From NCBI RefSeq assembly GCF_963676685.1, contig NC_092344.1:104160001-104224000 (forward strand): 64,000 nucleotides of DNA, read 5' to 3'. The position numbers were made by a program, and so were the translations under genes. The notes under the pieces are model-generated. The model ran no database searches. It had not been told where the DNA came from and saw nothing but the letters and a program-made list of their open reading frames with translations. Each line of letters opens with the position of its first letter. The first letter of the stretch is position 1. This stretch comes from Mytilus edulis (lineage: Eukaryota). Shown here one piece after another: positions 4,165-19,218 of the stretch.

Positions 4165-5678
4165 TGTATAATCTTGTGTAAACCAGTTTTATTTTTGAAT
4201 GATATTTATTTTAATTTTCATGTCAGTGAAGATGAGATTTGGTTGTTATTTTCCTGTGGTGGCAATTGAATGAACATGAACTTGTCTCAATGTTGTTTAT
4301 GATAAGCTATCTGCTTCCTAGTTTTTGGTGGGTAATGTGTTGCTCATTCTTAGTTTATATGTTGTATTTGTCTTTATCCCCATTGAATTGTCCCTAAGTA
4401 TGTTTTCGATTTATCATTTAGAATCATTTTCATAATAGCATGGACAACTGCAATACTTTTGTTGGTAATAGTACTGAATGATTTACCTTTTACTTGTTTA
4501 TCATTGGCTATTGATATTGGTGATTTTAGGCTCACTCAGTCTGTCAGAGGCTTTCCTATGGGGTTTAAAATAAAATAAAAGAGTTAATTACTTGCAGGTG
4601 AGCGAGAAGAAAAAAAGAAAGTTTAAGTATTCAACATTTACAACAGTACACACTATTTAGTCCTCTGATAGTTGTTCATATTATTTGATTTAGGCGTTTA
4701 GAACTGTTGGCAACCCCACAAATTAAATGTCTATATTATTTACATATGACAAGTGGGTGTAACAGACAAACATTCACATAATCTGACCCAGTCAATTGGT
4801 AACCTGAGTGCGCCTAGAAATGGAATTGTCCTAGTTGTTATGAAAATGATTCTATGAGTTTGAATACCACTTTGGTATCTTTCGCTTTCTTATATTATCC
4901 TATTTAGTGATAAAACATAAATGAGGAAAGGAAGACGAAAGACTATGTCAAAATTGAAATGAAAAATATCCATAGTAATTTGTGTTACATAAAGTCCATA
5001 ATGGTCAACCAAGTCATTATGCAGATGTTAACATTTCAATTACTAATTTATATTTTGCTTAAGTTCAGTAATTTTCATGTAAGCAGCAACCTTTAATCAA
5101 AGAAATCCTCATGAGATAAACAATCTCCTGAATATCATATAAACTGAGCGATTGTTTTAAATTCCTTTAAAAATACTGGTAGAGTGTTGCTAAAGAGATT
5201 TCTTCAAGGGTACCAGGTTTATGATTTGACAAACCAGACACACTTTCCATCTACATTAAAAACCCATCAGTGTTCTTTTGAGTCAAAACAGTTAGGAACC
5301 AATTCATCAATGAAGTTGAAAAGCACTGAATATCATATGGAAATTCAAAATGTACAAAATCCGGGGTTAGGCCCAAAACAATTTTCACAATCGAAAACTC
5401 CTTGCTTTATGTTGAAGTTTACCAGCCTTCACTTAATTTATAGTCATAGCTCAAGGTATGAAGCAGTATCTATGGTTTCCTTTATTTTTATTTTTAATTA
5501 AGTAAAGGGACATCAGTTGTACAGAATAAAATTGAGAATGGAAATGGGGAATGTGTCAAAGAGACAACAACCCGACCATAGAAGAACAGACAACAGCAGA
5601 AGGTCACCAACAGGTCTTCAATGCAGCGAAAAATTACTGCACCTGGAGTCGTCCTTCAGCTGACCCCTAAACAATATA

Positions 5679-11690: not shown

Positions 11691-11829
11691 AAAATCAGGT
11701 ATAAACAGATTAGTGTCTGTAAAATCAGGTATAAACAGATTAGTGTCTGTATTTTCGCATTACATTAGAATACGTTAGAGTAATCAGATCGAAATTTAGA
11801 GTTAGAAGTTTGAAGTTAAAAGTTTGACG

Positions 11830-13092
11830 ATGGCCGACAGACCTCGCAGAGACGTCCATGGATTGAATTATAAGTCACTATCGGAGTACGGGATCCCAGA
11901 TGCGGGGGAAACCAAAGAGGAGAAGAAACTTGAAGATCCAAGCAGTGTTAAAAGGAAGTTGGACGTGAGGGACGAGAAAAAATCTCTAAGCAGTGCGAAG
12001 AAGAAGTTGGCGGCAGCCCTCAGTCTAGACAAATCCTGCAATGAAGATGATGCTGAAGACGAGGAGTTGAGATGTTTAAGGGCGGAGTTAAAAAGCACAG
12101 AAGATGATTTAAAATCACAGAGATTACAAAACGAAAAGTTGAAGTTGAAGGAAGAGTTAAAGAGAAAACAGCAGGAGTTAGAAAAAGAGAAAGGTGAGAG
12201 TAAAAGTACTTTACATAAGAAAGTGGCTACGACATCTAGCGACAAAAGTAAAGAGAAGGTTTTACGGGAAAAATCAATTAAAGACCCTTCACTAAATGAA
12301 CTTAGGCAATTTGAAAAATTAAACGAAATAGTAGACAAGAAGTTATCAAAGCTAGGTCTTCTTGAGCAAACAATTGATTCTGATTCGTCTTCTAGTACTT
12401 CATCTGAAAAATCTCACTCTGTCACTGTTAAGAAGGGTAAAAAGAAAGTAGATTGTATCAGGGTTTCGGATAGTTCCGATTCAGAGTCAGATTGTGACGA
12501 AAAGAAAAAGAAGAAAAACAAGAAAACCAAGTCCGGAATTAAAGCAAAGGCTTCCGACAAAGTCAAAACTCAATTGCTCTGGCCCCAATCTGCTCTTCAA
12601 TATGAATTCGTTAACGAGTCTGTGTCCTTTAACGATTTAGATCCTAAACTTTTTACTGCAGGTGAGCTGGAGATAATTACAAGTAAAAACATTTCAGAAA
12701 AAGAGAGGTCAGGTCGTTTAAATCTACTAAAGAAGATAACATATTATAGCAATATTTATTCTTGGAAAGGTCTGCTATCTTTTTATGCTGCGTGGTTACG
12801 CAAAATTGAGTTAGGTCAGAAGTCCTGGGATGATGATCCATCGTCTATCGAAGTTCCTATTCTTACTCAGTATATTGTGCCTAAAGCAAAAACATCGAGT
12901 TTTCCCGCTAAGTCGTCGGAAAATAAGGATGACCAGGTTTGGTTTTGTACTCTTTTTAATAGGAACCGTTGTACGCACAAAGGGTCACATACAACTTTCA
13001 TTAAAGGTCAGCAGAGAGTAGTTCAGCACATTTGTGCAGTATGCTGGAAAAAAGATAAAAGCAAACTAAGTCATCCTGAATGTGCTAACTAG
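11830..13092 (+). CDS. Ngaro ORF1 Gag-like protein (coiled coil, acidic/basic tract, C-terminal Cys/His finger)
   Basis: First ATG at 11830; C-terminal [17 protein letters not shown]...HICAVCW...HPEC as in DIRS/Ngaro ORF1. Confidence 0.85.
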
Positions 13093-13109
13093 ATATATCT
13101 TTTTCTCCG

Positions 13110-14948
13110 ATGAATCCTGACGCTGAAATTTTTTATCCTGAATATTTGAAACGAAATCAAGCACGTAAAATTTTTTCTAGTTCCAATACGGTAGTATATG
13201 AAGGTAATAGAGATTTTTCAAATTGTTCAGTTTGCAAAGAAGTACACAATTTAGATAAACATTGGTTTGAGTTTTTAGAAAGATCTGTGTCGGATCACGA
13301 ACTTATTATGAGTTCGCAGAAGTATAATTTTGAGGATAGTAAAATCCCAGTGGTTTCGCATTTGAATATAGACTTCTTCAAATTCATGTTAACAGATTAT
13401 TTTGATAGAAACATTTGTCAATTTTTGGAATTCGGTTTTCCTATTGGTTGTGAAAATTGTACTGAATTTTCTTCTGAGAAGATCGTTCAAAATCACAAGG
13501 GAGCGGTCGAGTTCCCGGATGATTTAGAGAAATATTTGAAAAAAGAAATCGAGAAGAAAGCAGTATTAGGACCGTTTCACGTAAATCCGTTTTCTCATGA
13601 TATTGTCATTTCGCCGCTGAATAGTGTTCCCAAAAAAGGTTCTCAGGAACGGAGGATCATCTTAGACTTAAGTGTAAAAGGAGGGGGTGCTATCAACGGT
13701 TATATTGACAAAGACAGCTATTTAGGAAATGAGGTTCATTTAAAATATCCAAATGTTGATGCATTAGTAGAGCTTATTAAAAAGCATGGTCGGAACTGTT
13801 TTATTTTCAAACGGGACTTGAGTAGGGCTTACAGACAAATTTTCATTGACTTACACGATGTGCACTTAGTTGGATACAAATGGAATGATCATTTATATTT
13901 CGATAGAGTCCTCAGCATGGGTTTGCGATCAGCTGCTCATATTTGCCAGCGTGTTACAAATGCAGTTGCTTTCATGTATCGGCAAATGGGATTTGATATA
14001 GTAAACTATTTAGATGATTTTGCGGGGGTGGAATCAGTTGACAGAGCCGATAAGGCATATATTGAATTAAAGCGTTTACTTGATTCCTGTGGTTTAGAAG
14101 AATCGTCTCATAAGGCAGTTTCTCCTAGTACTAGGATGGAGTTTCTGGGGATAATATGTGATACTAGTAAACTTTTGTTACAAATTCCTGACGATAAATT
14201 AAAAGATATTCAGGAAATTTTACTTTTTTGGACAAACAAGAGATCTGCCAAATTACGCGATATTCAATCGTTGGTAGGGAAATTAAATTTTATGGCGAGC
14301 TGTGTTAGACCTGGACGTATATTTATGAGCAGGTTGCTCAATTGGCTTAGATCAGCTTACGATCAAACTGGTTATATTGTAGTGCCTAGTTATGTTCAAA
14401 ATGATATATTGTGGTGGGTCAATTTTCTACCTCATTACAACGGCATATCAATGATGATGATAGAGGAATGGTCGATACCGGACGAAGTTTTTTCTTCTGA
14501 CGCTTGCTTGTCGGGTTGCGGTGGTTGGTTTGGTGGAAAATTCTTTCATCAAGTTTTTCCAGAATTTATTATGGAGTCTAATCTACATATAAACTGTCTC
14601 GAGTTATTATCTATTATAGTATGTTTAAAGTTGTGGGCGCAGTGCTTCAGGGGAAAGAGAATTCGTATTTTGTGCGATAACATTACTTCTGTTACTGTAA
14701 TTAACACTGGTAAGTCCAGAGATACCTTTTTACAGTGTTGTCTGAGAGAACTTTGCTACATTGCTGCTATATACGAATTTGAGATTAGGGCTGTTCATTT
14801 AGCAGGAACTGACAATAGGTTACCTGATTATTTATCGAGATGGCATACTTCGGATAAATTTGCTGCATTGTTCTATAATGCGGTATCAGGTTCATTAGAA
14901 GAGTTTAGTGCGGAAGAACATTTGTTTAAATTTTCGCATAAGTGGTAA
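13110..14948 (+). CDS. Ngaro reverse transcriptase / RNase H
   Basis: RRIILDLS, KRDLSRAYRQI, MGLRSA, YLDDF, FLGI; RNase H residues in SSDAC, HINCLEL, CDN, DNRLPDYLSR. Confidence 0.93.
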   Translation: MNPDAEIFYPEYLKRNQARKIFSSSNTVVYEGNRDFSNCSVCKEVHNLDKHWFEFLERSVSDHELIMSSQKYNFEDSKIPVVSHLNIDFFKFMLTDYFDRNICQFLEFGFPIGCENCTEFSSEKIVQNHKGAVEFPDDLEKYLKKEIEKKAVLGPFHVNPFSHDIVISPLNSVPKKGSQERRIILDLSVKGGGAINGYIDKDSYLGNEVHLKYPNVDALVELIKKHGRNCFIFKRDLSRAYRQIFIDLHDVHLVGYKWNDHLYFDRVLSMGLRSAAHICQRVTNAVAFMYRQMGFDIVNYLDDFAGVESVDRADKAYIELKRLLDSCGLEESSHKAVSPSTRMEFLGIICDTSKLLLQIPDDKLKDIQEILLFWTNKRSAKLRDIQSLVGKLNFMASCVRPGRIFMSRLLNWLRSAYDQTGYIVVPSYVQNDILWWVNFLPHYNGISMMMIEEWSIPDEVFSSDACLSGCGGWFGGKFFHQVFPEFIMESNLHINCLELLSIIVCLKLWAQCFRGKRIRILCDNITSVTVINTGKSRDTFLQCCLRELCYIAAIYEFEIRAVHLAGTDNRLPDYLSRWHTSDKFAALFYNAVSGSLEEFSAEEHLFKFSHKW

Positions 14949-15019
14949 TTACGTTGATAAAGTTTATATTTGAACAAGCATTGGACAGCCAATAAAAGAA
15001 ATTTTTGAATGCTTTTCAG

Positions 15020-15990
15020 ATTTAGAATTATTACAGTTAAAAGAGGATGTTAAAGTTTCTACTAGAGCAGCATATGCGCTAGGATCGAAGAAAAACTTAT
15101 TAGTCCAATGGAGAGCCTTTTTACTATTTTGCACGTACTTTAATATGAGTTTTATTCCTGCAAATTTGGATACTATTTGTTGTTATGCACAATTTCTCAG
15201 TCGGTCTTTTAAATCTGTAGATTCTATTAAGAATTATATTAATGGTGTAAAAGTTATGCATTTAATGTTGGATTGCTCTTTTCCACACTTAGACAGTTTT
15301 GTTTATAAATTACTGCTTAAAGGATTGTCACGAACCAAGTCACATATGCCACGTAGAGCTTTACCCATTTCACCAGATATTTTATTAGAGATGGTGGTAC
15401 ATTTTAATTTAGAAAATGGTTCTGATTGTGTATATTGGTGTCTTTTTTTGTTTGCCTTTTTCTTGATGTCCAGGAAATCTAACTTAGTTCCAGATTCTTG
15501 TTCTCAATTTGACAAGAATAAGCAATTGACCAGAGGTAAAGTCTTTGTTGTTAACGATATTGCTATAGTTGTTTTTGAATGGACTAAGACTATTCAACAT
15601 GGGGAAAGAAGATTAAAGATTCCGTTGGTTAAAATCCCTGGCTCTGTCCTTTGTCCGGTTTCTGCGTATAATCATATGTGTAGTAAAGTTCCGGCATCTC
15701 ATGATTCCCCTGCCTTTGTTATAAGTAAGAATTCGAAGTTGACACCAGTCACTTATGGTCAGTTCCAGAGAAAGCTGAAATCTGTTATTCTGAAGACAGG
15801 GAGAGATCCTAATCTATATTCATCACATAGTTTTAGGAGAGGTGGTGCCACTTTTGCATTTAGTTCACATGTACCTAGTGATCTTATTCAATTACACGGG
15901 GACTGGGCAAGCGATGCCTATAAAATATATTTAGAATTTTCTATGAAGGATAAAATTTCTGTAGTTAGAAATATGGCAAAATTTGTTTGA
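15020..15990 (+). CDS. Ngaro tyrosine recombinase (frame open from 14974; first ATG 15145; probable splice acceptor at 15019)
   Basis: Catalytic R (SRKSNL), K (WTKT), HSFRRGGA, HGDW and Y. The N-terminal segment AAYALGSKKNLLVQWRAFLLFC lies in frame upstream of the first ATG. Confidence 0.9.
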
Positions 15991-16001
15991 TTGTCTTTCA
16001 G

Positions 16002-16528
16002 AAGTTGTGACCAGTAAGAAGGTTTTGGTTTTTACAGATTCTATAGGGAAATATTTGGATGACATAATTTGCATGGATTTGGTCGCGGTCAGAGGAGCCA
16101 GGATATATTCTTTAAGAAACATGATTAAGGGTAGAGATATATGTTTAGCTAACTATTCTCATATTATTATTCACTTAGGTACGAATGATATAGTTAATAA
16201 CTCTGTTGACAAAATTATTGCTGATTTTAGGGAACTTATTGTTACTATCAAATCTTATTCATCCAGTATTAAAATTTTTATATCTTCTATTCTGCCAAGG
16301 CCTGTTGATTTTTCTTATACAGGTAATAAGTGTAAAAGTGTTAATTTAGAATTGAGCAGGATGTGCTCTAAGAGTAATTTAAGCTATATTAGGTCTTTTA
16401 AAAGATTTTTTCATAAAGGCATTCCAGTAAGGTCATTATTTGCTTTTAAAGATGGTGGGCTTCACCTTAATGAAGCTGGGCAATATGAATTGCGCCAGTG
16501 TTTCCAGCATGCTATTAATCATATGTAA
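16002..16528 (+). CDS. SGNH/GDSL hydrolase ORF of the Ngaro element (no ATG before the catalytic Ser; acceptor at 16001)
   Basis: Blocks VLVFTDSI, VRGA, IIHLGTND, DGGLHLN. Confidence 0.85.
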
Positions 16529-16594
16529 ATAATTTAGTATTTTGTATTTTGTCTTCATGTATGTCATTATTATTATTTAGTTTTTATAGGCTAG

Positions 16595-16810
16595 CCTAAA
16601 GGGAGTGTTTCATTCCTTAGGTGTTTGAATTTTCAAGGGAGTGTTTCATCCTTTGGATTCATTAGTGTATATATGTCTCTTTAAGGTACTCTACTTTTAG
16701 GAGAGATTTCCGTGAGTATCTCCTAAGTAGATCTAGCAGCTGAAGAAGTGTTTTATTCTTCCTGCTTGGAGTTGAACTTTCAAGAGAGTGTTACATCTCT
16801 TGGGTTTAAC
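16595..16810 (+). other. Structured RNA element: four stem-loops sharing the apical motif AGTGTTWYAT in the Ngaro 3' UTR
   Basis: Stems differ in sequence but still pair (AAGGGA/TTCCTT, CAAGGGA/TCCTTTG, GAAGAA/TTCTTC, CAAGAGA/TCTCTTG). Confidence 0.75.
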
Positions 16811-17200
16811 CACATCTGTAACTTGTTTGGTTTTGTTTGGCGGGCTAGTTTGGCGGATATTTAATTTTTGTGGCCCGCCTTAATTTATATTATTCTAGTT
16901 TAACTGAATAAGTATTAATATTTGTATATGTATTGGTAATTGTTCTTTATATTATTGTAATTCATGTATGTAAAGATTTATGTTTTCGGCCAAATAAATT
17001 TATATTATTATTACAGTCTTTTATGAAGCCAAGAAGTAATTGGTTTGTTTTTTCTAAAAAAAACTAGTAATTACGATGCGAAATATGTTCTAGTTACCCC
17101 CCTTTGGCCGATCATTTGATATTCTCGCATAACTGATTTTGAATTGTGTTCACTCCACCTTTAGTTTTAAAGTGAATTCTTTTTCCTAGTCATTACATTA

Positions 17201-17640
17201 CAAGGGGTACAATCAAAATCACGTGATGGATATACACACACCGGAAGTTACAATCGAACTCGCCGCTTGAAAGGTTAGTAGTTGCATTTTCTTGTTTATA
17301 TCAATTAAATTTTGATTAATAAGTTGGCACACCGAATGTCGGATAGTATGTAGTTTTAAAATACACAATTGTTTTTGCTAGAAAGCGTGCAGTTATTGCA
17401 AACACTTCGACGGTGAAATTTTGGAACTGTGTCGAAGTGTTCGCATTAACTGCACGCTTTCCAGCAAGGATAATTGTGTATTTCAAAACTAGATAGTATC
17501 CTACATTCGGTGCACTACCTTATTTATTAAATTTTATTGATATAAACAAGTAAATACGACTACTTACCTTTCAAGCGGTCTGCTCGACTGTTACTTCCGG
17601 TGTGTGTATATCCATCACGTGATTTTGATTGTACCCCTTG
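17201..17640. mobile_element. 440-bp fold-back MITE inserted in the Ngaro A2 repeat, 5-bp TSD CATTA
   Basis: TIR CAAGGGGTACAATCAAAATCACGTGATGGATATACACACACCGGAAGT with its inverse at the right end; arms pair almost to the centre. Confidence 0.88.
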
Positions 17641-19218
17641 CATTAGAATACGTTAGAGTAATCAGATCGAAATTTACCCACCCGCCCTCTCCTTTTTTTT
17701 TTATTTTTGTCAAATTTCTAGTTTATTTATTTTATTTTATTTTTGCATTTTATGCATCAGTAACTTATGTGGCGGATATTTAATTTTTGTGGCCCGCCTT
17801 AATTTATATTATTCTAGTTTAACTGAATAAGTATTAATATTTGTATATGTATTGGTAATTGTTCTTTATATTATTGTAATTCATGTATGTAAAGATTTAT
17901 GTTTTCGGCCAAATAAATTTATATTATTATTACAGTCTTTTATGAAGCCAAGAAGTAATTAGGTATAAACTACAACAAAAGTTTTATTTGTTTTATATTT
18001 TTTTCTAACCATTACAATAATTATGTTGGTATACAAAATTTTCTTTTAATAGAAGACTACTTATCATATACTAAATGTCACATTTTTAGTGTTCAGGTAC
18101 ATTTACTTTGATTTTAGTGGATAATTACTCATCAATTGAGATGCTCCTGAATTGGAGGAAGATTCTAAAAACAGAACTTTACAGAAAGAATAAATGAAAA
18201 CTCCCGTTCTCTCCCCTATCTCATGTATCTCCGATTGACATTGTTTACCGCGAAAGTTGACCTACAAATTATAGCCTCAGATTAAAGCATTGCATGCTAG
18301 TATGTGAATCATCTACACTACAGCAAACATCATTAGGTTTATATTAAACAAATACGGATTTTAAATTAGTATACAAATACTGTGAATGATTTTAATATTG
18401 AATAAAGGATATCTCTGTATAGTGTGGCATTCCAACAATGACGTCACTAGGTTAGATATATTTCGAATATTTCGTAGTACTGATTTTTCCGGACTGTAAA
18501 AGAAACGTATATAGTATAAGGGAAAGCTCAATATACGATAATTTCACGAGAAACAGAAGTAAAATATGTAAAATAAGTGTTTAAAGTCAATCTGTTCTCC
18601 TTGTCATCAATTTCAGTATGACATTTTAAGGGGGTTTCCAAACTATTAAAACAAAATGATTGACGTGAGGGCATGGAACTCTGGCCAACCACATAAGGGA
18701 ATTGACGGCTTGAAGCCGTCTTTCCCCAAAAAACTACACATTTAATATCCAATATCTTAAGAAACTTACAATGTCTCCATAACCTGTTACCAATGTAACA
18801 TAAACACAATCAACATGATCAAAATGTTTACCTTTCTGGAAGTTACCATGCAGATGATGTGCTCAGGCATATGTTATTACTGCAATGTTCTTGCAAACAT
18901 ATAAAATAGTCAAATATTTCAAGTCTGCAATCTAGCTGCGAGCATTCCTTATATTTTCAATTTTCCTTCAATCTAATTGCCGAAACATAAATGTACCTGT
19001 ATACTTGCTAAATATTGCAATGGAACACCGTCCGACAATGATTGGGAAAATCATTACAGGCAAGTCAAGGCTCTTCTAATGTTGAAGTCTCAACTTGAAT
19101 GGCAAACACCTGTATTAAGCTAATAAAACCAGTAATATTTATAGTTTAAACCATTTTTTACACGTCCGCAGTTTGTCAGAAATTCAAACTTTTCAATGTC
19201 TGAAAGTGGACAGTATAT

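Follow-up and report, generated by a model that had tools for sequence, protein, structure and literature searches.

The 64,000-nucleotide (nt) window of Mytilus edulis DNA analysed here (NC_092344.1, positions 104,160,001 to 104,224,000, forward strand) contains a damaged copy of a Ngaro retrotransposon (order DIRS), assigned on gene order and repeat layout. Its open reading frames (ORFs) encode, in this order, a gag-like protein, a reverse transcriptase (RT) with RNase H, a tyrosine recombinase (YR) and an SGNH hydrolase. We find that a splice donor inside gag, at position 12193, is joined to an acceptor that opens the hydrolase exon at 16002. The same donor is very probably also joined to an acceptor that opens the recombinase exon at 15020, and the RT is probably made from unspliced RNA by stop-codon readthrough at the end of gag. 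For these three parts taken together, we put the probability at about 0.7.

The Gag leader is spliced to the SGNH hydrolase

First, the splice is seen in reads. We compared four read runs, X1 and X2 as contigs and X21 and X24 as raw reads. X2 is an RNA library; X1 covers the element about 57-fold, and its RNA origin is our guess; X21 and X24 were sampled at 6% and 18%, respectively, and barely cover the interior of the element, too thinly for junctions. An X2 contig carries a joint with GT..AG ends that corresponds to 12193|16002, and the X2 contigs break at 12193, with a depth of 18.5 before this position and 7.0 after it.

Second, the genome holds copies that lack the same intron. One of these (L114/L127) is 99% like locus L040, has complete terminal repeats (A1 and B1-A2-B2) and joins the donor to the SGNH acceptor to the base, opening a frame of 285 codons. 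The same join occurs in a second family, that of L058, in a copy (L167) that is 93–95% like its reference and carries two substitutions within six bases past the join, the first joined base being mismatched. Among the internal joins compared, 15 of 17 miss the predicted splice sites. The window's own family contributes no intron-less copy among 12 hits to exon 1 and 14 to the 3′ region. Because exact intron loss with regenerated ends would result from reverse transcription of spliced RNA, we infer that spliced Ngaro RNA has been copied back into the genome with complete ends.

Third, RefSeq proteins, which are computed gene models, include leader–SGNH fusions that agree residue for residue with the predicted join in four families (P0146, P0176, P0016 and P0353), although exon 1 does not differ between P0016 and L041, so that P0016 is not independent of this genome. 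A profile built from six leaders was searched against a selected set of 14 proteins, of which 13 had been taken from 150 hits because of their long N-terminal extensions; it recognizes a leader-like N terminus on the clam SGNH proteins P0338 (E = 1e-8), P0289 (3e-6) and P0224 (3e-4), with P0220 reaching only 0.45.

Fourth, the acceptor is conserved. Of 123 genomic YR hits, 40 were taken for their score, spread and intactness; manual sorting gave 13 families, whose recombinases are 21–66% identical. At a fixed threshold, position and phase are kept across families for both acceptors, as the original prediction had asked: a phase-1 acceptor lies at the homologous position in 8 of 9 families for SGNH (9 of 9 after hand inspection) and within one seven-column window in 12 of 13 for YR. 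The residue pairs encoded across the SGNH acceptor AG are all different, nine in nine families. The window's SGNH ORF indeed has no Met ahead of its catalytic Ser, which is codon 13 after the acceptor, the first Met being codon 24.

Several points weigh against this splice. Junctions to four acceptors had been predicted; the one to 16002 appears in one of the four runs (X2), and there in a single contig with a depth of 4 and a short side of 28 nt. X1, at about 57-fold, shows no 12193|16002 joint, and the runs have no junction to 15020 or 16590 nor, in X1 and X2, a contig break at 13093. One family, moreover, has a Met right after its SGNH acceptor.

Position, and not phase, sets these sites apart. 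The donors AAG|GTGAGA (12193) and CAG|GTGAGC (12661) are both phase 1 in gag, and the acceptors at 13092, 15019, 16001 and 16589 sit where the original prediction placed them, also in phase 1, such that joins from either donor keep the frame; those from 12193 open frames of 739 (RT), 444 (YR), 296 (SGNH) and 122 amino acids (aa; stop). The RT, YR and SGNH ORFs occupy three frames, gag sharing that of YR. As support for splicing, however, this agreement is weak, since 52–61% of acceptor-like motifs inside these ORFs are in phase 1 anyway (103/198 in YR, 45/74 in SGNH and 144/238 in RT), and we rejected phase matching taken alone as evidence. Nor is column conservation a safe guide by itself: at invariant catalytic motifs of YR, two phase-2 windows are shared by 11 and 9 of the 13 families, so that variation of the residues across the AG is needed as an extra criterion. 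What rises above chance is that the YR and SGNH acceptors keep a fixed position, together with their use, observed for SGNH and read from gene models for YR.

The donor and the Gag leader

A strong phase-1 GTGAG donor lies between a long helix and a conserved LxxLR helix in 5 of the 10 families with a gag 5′ end, 4–33 codons ahead of the LxxLR helix in L033, L040, L049 and L058 and in the matching place in L038. Weighing on the other side, the remaining five have weaker or displaced donors: L054 and L065 have a weaker phase-1 donor at the same place, and L067, L068 and L069 have candidates elsewhere. In a structural model of Gag, built from an eight-sequence alignment with a mean pLDDT of 61, the donor maps to the end of a confident long helix (residues 78–126), upstream of a folded core and a Cys/His region. 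No match to this model was found in the PDB at E = 0.001, a weak negative given its pLDDT, and no capsid fold was recognized. A two-copy fold prediction of the leader helix scored 0.00 and was used neither for nor against the model.

In most families the leader opens on a basic motif, after which come Y-K-x-L and G (11830–11892 in the window). The basic motif of one family (L065, positions 779–820) may resemble one found in long terminal repeat (LTR)-retrotransposon integrase C termini. The X1 contigs break at 12195, two bases beyond the donor, with no listed joint (12166–12195), which may reflect a variant or a splice to outside the stretch.

The second donor that had been proposed, at 12661, was rejected. 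It lies on the G-E-L codons of a conserved A-G-E-L motif, where the GT is kept in only three of eight families and lost in five; no gene model uses it, and X1 shows no break at this site. In X2, coverage is missing over 4 nt nearby, at 12665–12668. Of the original idea that a single gag leader is joined to each enzyme, the splice from 12193 to SGNH stands and that to YR very likely does; donor 12661 and the splice to RT, discussed below, are not supported.

The recombinase acceptor

That the donor at 12193 is also joined to the YR acceptor at 15020 is very probable. Hand inspection finds the acceptor in the thirteenth family as well, with one pyrimidine fewer. The next phase-1 window in YR is shared by 6 of 13 families and the best window in RT by 6 of 10. 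Eight different residue pairs span the acceptor AG among the 13 families. The first Met after it is not conserved and ranges from codon 3 to codon 151; in the window, 41 codons separate the two, and homology ahead of the first Met had been noted in this ORF. RefSeq models carry the predicted leader–YR join in three families (P0150, P0165 and P0200), five isoform records of a fourth family also use the acceptor, for a 57-nt exon, and the six-leader profile finds a leader-like start on the YR of scallop P0131 (E = 0.003).

Other observations weigh against this join, and some of them would suit a reading in which only the SGNH splice is real, the YR being translated, by way of reinitiation, an internal start or a frameshift after RT, from RNA that is unspliced or spliced twice, and its acceptor serving minor or non-productive splices. 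The reads contain no leader–YR junction and the genomic hits no intron-less leader–YR copy, and neither X1 nor X2 has a contig break at 15020. The isoforms of the fourth family put the YR acceptor to no use other than the 57-nt exon, which continues to SGNH (L058, oriented positions 4505–4561, with an internal donor before SGNH). The YR begins directly past the RT stop in several families, and in four families a Met comes no more than 15 codons from the acceptor. Other annotations (P0026, P0143, P0149 and P0232) attach other, unrelated exons to the same acceptors, which indicates that gene predictors are drawn to these sites. Against an SGNH-only splice, however, the YR acceptor keeps one position in 13 of 13 families, four of them having no SGNH hit; families differ in the YR frame relative to that of RT and in the distance to the first Met; most other families do not keep the 57-nt exon's internal donor; and there are the full leader–YR models in three families. 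We consider it unlikely that splicing stops at the hydrolase.

In the window's family, the interval from the RT stop to the YR acceptor contains an AATAAA (14992–14997); this hexamer is not evident in the other families shown.

The gag/RT boundary

The RT is probably expressed by readthrough of a gag UGA-CUA(G), a conclusion drawn from sequence comparison. The original prediction had instead spliced the leader to RT at an acceptor coinciding with the gag stop. That context, TGCTAACTAG at 13092, proves to be private to the window copy: four of four sister copies with both anchors are 31 nt longer, and the missing 31 nt are also present in the X1 and X2 contigs and in four database Gag proteins. 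The apparent acceptor is thus the product of a 31-nt deletion, and intact copies read gag, TGA-CTA and RT in one frame.

In nine of the 11 families having both a gag end and an RT start, a single stop, always TGA, separates gag from an RT in the same frame, and CT(A/G) follows it in eight of these nine. The TGA-CT(A/G) context is found at 0 of 32 RT, YR and SGNH stops and at 278 of 22,711 stop triplets in the loci (1.2%). The first Met after the gag stop lies at codon 8–75, and four families keep an N/D-P-x-A-E/D-x-F motif that is placed upstream of this Met or around it. A single, conserved in-frame stop in a leaky context is therefore found in sister copies and related families, and not in the damaged window copy. 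In mammalian cells, readthrough at UGA_CUAG has been measured at about 1.5–17% (PMC9841425). The shared frame and the conserved TGA-CTA(G) context make readthrough a likelier route to RT than splicing.

Three points count against readthrough: no RNA structure is shared after the gag stop (z scores of −2.35 to +1.8); in Candida Tca2, the flanks of the gag UGA failed to drive readthrough in a yeast reporter (PMC2194720); and five of the nine contexts are TGACTAG, such that a phase-1 AG is also on offer. Together with a phase-1 CAG within 13 nt in two more families, this last point would allow the RT, too, to be made by splicing, the leader being joined to the AG of TGACTAG just past the gag stop, as in the full programme originally predicted. 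But these AGs have no shared tract ahead of them (5, 2, 9, 6 and 5 pyrimidines in 12 positions), and two families keep TGA-CTA without the G. A splice would need neither a common gag/RT frame nor a TGA, both of which are present in nine of nine in-frame families. The X1 and X2 contigs do not break at 13093, and no such model occurs among five longer leader-bearing proteins, a weak point as these are representatives only. Splicing to RT is improbable on this evidence.

In the distant families L067, L069 and L070, which have no SGNH hit, a phase-1 YR acceptor is kept and gag and RT are out of frame, gag ending in TAA, so RT there must be expressed otherwise.

A candidate stop acceptor

The runs contain no junction to the predicted stop acceptor at 16589. 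An acceptor-like motif of some kind follows the SGNH stop by no more than 260 nt in all nine SGNH families, but its position is not fixed (+6 to +257). Most of these motifs give short tails, which are weak as evidence because DNA this rich in AT soon brings a stop in any case. In X21, exon 1 and the 3′ end are covered by a few sense-strand reads and the part between them by next to none, and a clam isoform, P0360, consists of the leader and a 25-aa tail; both fit a leader-only isoform and prove nothing.

Proposed expression model

In the model that we favour, unspliced RNA would serve as the genome and be translated into Gag by most ribosomes and, via UGA-CUA(G) readthrough, into Gag–RT/RNase H by a minority. 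The single gag donor at 12193 is spliced to the SGNH esterase exon and likely also to the recombinase exon, and the spliced RNAs would yield the 296-aa leader–SGNH and, by extension, the 444-aa leader–YR protein, without the folded core and Cys/His region of Gag. Every enzyme would begin with the same Gag leader, which, with its basic motif, acidic patch and long helix, would most likely provide a start codon and a common localization or assembly handle. The spliced RNAs retain the terminal repeats and can return to the genome as copies.

A fuller programme from one promoter is conceivable but tentative, and we would sooner bet against it in its entirety. In addition to readthrough Gag–RT, alternative acceptors would give leader–recombinase, leader–esterase and free leader; the leader tag would assemble the enzymes in one particle and steer the recombinase to insertion sites; and spliced RNAs would be mobilized in trans as non-autonomous elements.

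At the other extreme, the sites might be cryptic ones that the host uses to destroy or neutralize element RNA, of no function to the element, which would suit its AT-rich sequence full of acceptor-like motifs and its very low expression in the two raw-read runs; but this is highly improbable, as position and phase are kept across families only 21–66% alike in YR, the joins are always in frame and give SGNH and YR their only conserved start, and spliced RNA appears to have been reverse-transcribed and inserted with complete ends.

Structure and state of the element

Matches to Pfam support the gene order: RVT_1 in the RT ORF (E = 9e-10), Lipase_GDSL_2 in the SGNH ORF, which sits 3′ of YR (E = 5e-9, over the curated cut-off), and weakly RNase H and Phage_integrase (E = 0.02–0.03). 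The four ORFs have no methyltransferase match at E = 0.1, which sets the element apart from PAT-like and DIRS-like elements, and no Pfam match to env, protease or DDE integrase. Database relatives named for YR are 91–100% alike, the near-identical named proteins being from Mytilus. The split direct repeats A1...B1-A2-B2 are shortened in the window, where the layout shows in the identical B1 and B2 and a short match between A1 and A2, and complete in L033, L035, L040, L049, L054 and L058. Inverted terminal repeats of the DIRS-1 type with an internal complementary region are not present; long inverted repeats occur in the window's element only within an insertion in A2. Compared with its sisters, the window copy is damaged by the reduction of A1 to 41 nt, by this insertion and by the 31-nt deletion at the end of gag (Table 1).

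Table 1. Features of the Ngaro element, in window coordinates
Feature	Coordinates	Strand	Remarks
Terminal repeat A1, remnant	11758..11798	+	Last 41 nt; about 190 nt in sister copies
gag-like ORF1	11830..13092	+	420 aa here; 428–430 aa in four database relatives
Exon 1, Gag leader	11830..12193	+	121 aa, with a basic motif at the N terminus, an acidic patch and a long helix (predicted); donor D1, AAG|GTGAGA, phase 1, at its end
Candidate donor D2	12659..12667	+	Codons of the conserved A-G-E-L Gag motif; not conserved as a splice site
gag/RT boundary	13087..13093	+	31 nt shorter than in sister copies, where gag stops at an in-frame TGA followed by CTAG
RT/RNase H ORF	13089..14948	+	619 aa, stop to stop; no methyltransferase match
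YR exon	15020..15990	+	Acceptor TGCTTTTCAG| at 15019, phase 1; predicted leader–YR, 444 aa
SGNH hydrolase exon	16002..16528	+	Acceptor TGTCTTTCAG| at 16001, phase 1; leader–SGNH, 296 aa
Candidate fourth acceptor	16575..16594	+	AG at 16589; would stop the leader immediately; putative
Stem-loop array, 3′ untranslated region	16590..16850	+	z = −4.3 against shuffles
Repeat B1	16851..17041	+	191 nt
Repeat A2	17042..17676	+	Broken at about 17204–17637 by an inserted inverted-repeat (MITE-like) element
Repeat B2	17770..17960	+	191 nt, identical to B1

Similar stems to those of the array at 16590–16850 are seen by eye after the SGNH stop in L038 and L040; the array may be a packaging or processing signal. 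The insertion in A2 (17204–17637), which resembles a miniature inverted-repeat transposable element (MITE), has long inverted arms and high depth in X1. X1 also skips 605 nt at 15582–16186, at a depth of 40 and without GT-AG ends, probably owing to a deleted copy, none such being among the loci fetched. Eight other loci (L031, L032, L083, L086, L087, L110, L171 and L173) pass directly from A1 into the interior of the element, often with a few bases in common at the join, and keep intact 3′ repeats; joins just behind or inside A1 would fit early circularization of incomplete cDNA.

Relation to known systems

Retroviral env and foamy-virus pol are expressed from subgenomic mRNAs that use one 5′ donor for downstream acceptors, and the Gag-Pol enzyme of murine leukaemia virus (MLV) is made by readthrough of an in-frame gag stop. 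The Ngaro element may follow the complex-retrovirus type, in which one 5′ donor is used with several acceptors; its use of the SGNH acceptor is observed, and that of the YR acceptor is read from conservation and gene models. Unlike retroviruses, it has no match to env, protease or DDE integrase, and its donor lies 121 codons inside gag, which results in Gag-leader fusions. Compared with MLV, the stop here is UGA-CUA, and no shared pseudoknot was found. Candida Tca2 likewise has an in-frame UGA between gag and pol but is a Copia element (PMC2194720), and mammalian UGA_CUAG readthrough has the same 3′ context but concerns cellular genes (PMC9841425). The Ty1/Copia element EVD also has a conserved splice that creates a subgenomic RNA and balances its proteins; EVD splices for excess Gag (PMC5580714), whereas here splicing from a single donor to two or more proposed acceptors would make enzymes that carry a Gag leader.

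Among YR retrotransposons, Xenopus DIRS-53_XT and DIRS-54_XT resemble the window's element in gene order (gag, RT/RNase H, YR, SGNH), in the A1...B1-A2-B2 repeats and in having no methyltransferase (PMC9210276). They are described as having overlapping ORFs and a hydrolase without proven function, and the text covered does not mention splicing, frameshifting, readthrough or a stop codon (PMC9210276). Unlike that description, ours proposes a route of expression for each ORF and places gag and RT in one frame. Fungal Ngaro elements (PMC3783388) and those of Cafeteria burkhardae (PMC8547959) have the same gene set minus SGNH, and the parts of the main texts covered do not mention splicing of the element. 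In fungal Ngaro, YR is in frame or frameshifted relative to RT–RNase H (PMC3783388), either of which splicing would tolerate. In Cafeteria Ngaro, loss of ORF1 coincides with an altered insertion preference (PMC8547959); a Gag leader on YR could explain why ORF1 tracks this preference.

The passages covered of the Ngaro and DIRS literature (PMC9210276, PMC7192593, PMC8547959, PMC3783388, PMC6681497, PMC4157794, PMC4495291, PMC9341512 and PMC12477816) do not give splicing or readthrough as a route of ORF expression; the founding Ngaro paper, a 2015 review, Repbase notes and supplements lie outside this scope, and an earlier mention there is possible.

Implications

How the overlapping, start-less ORFs of YR retrotransposons are expressed is not addressed in those passages, and fusion to a Gag leader would explain genes that have no conserved start codon. 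Leader splicing would also explain why YR can sit in any frame. It gives exact predicted proteins, the 296-aa leader–SGNH, the 444-aa leader–YR and Gag–RT, in place of the truncated ORFs of annotation, and many 'uncharacterized' bivalve RefSeq genes would be spliced products of these transposons.

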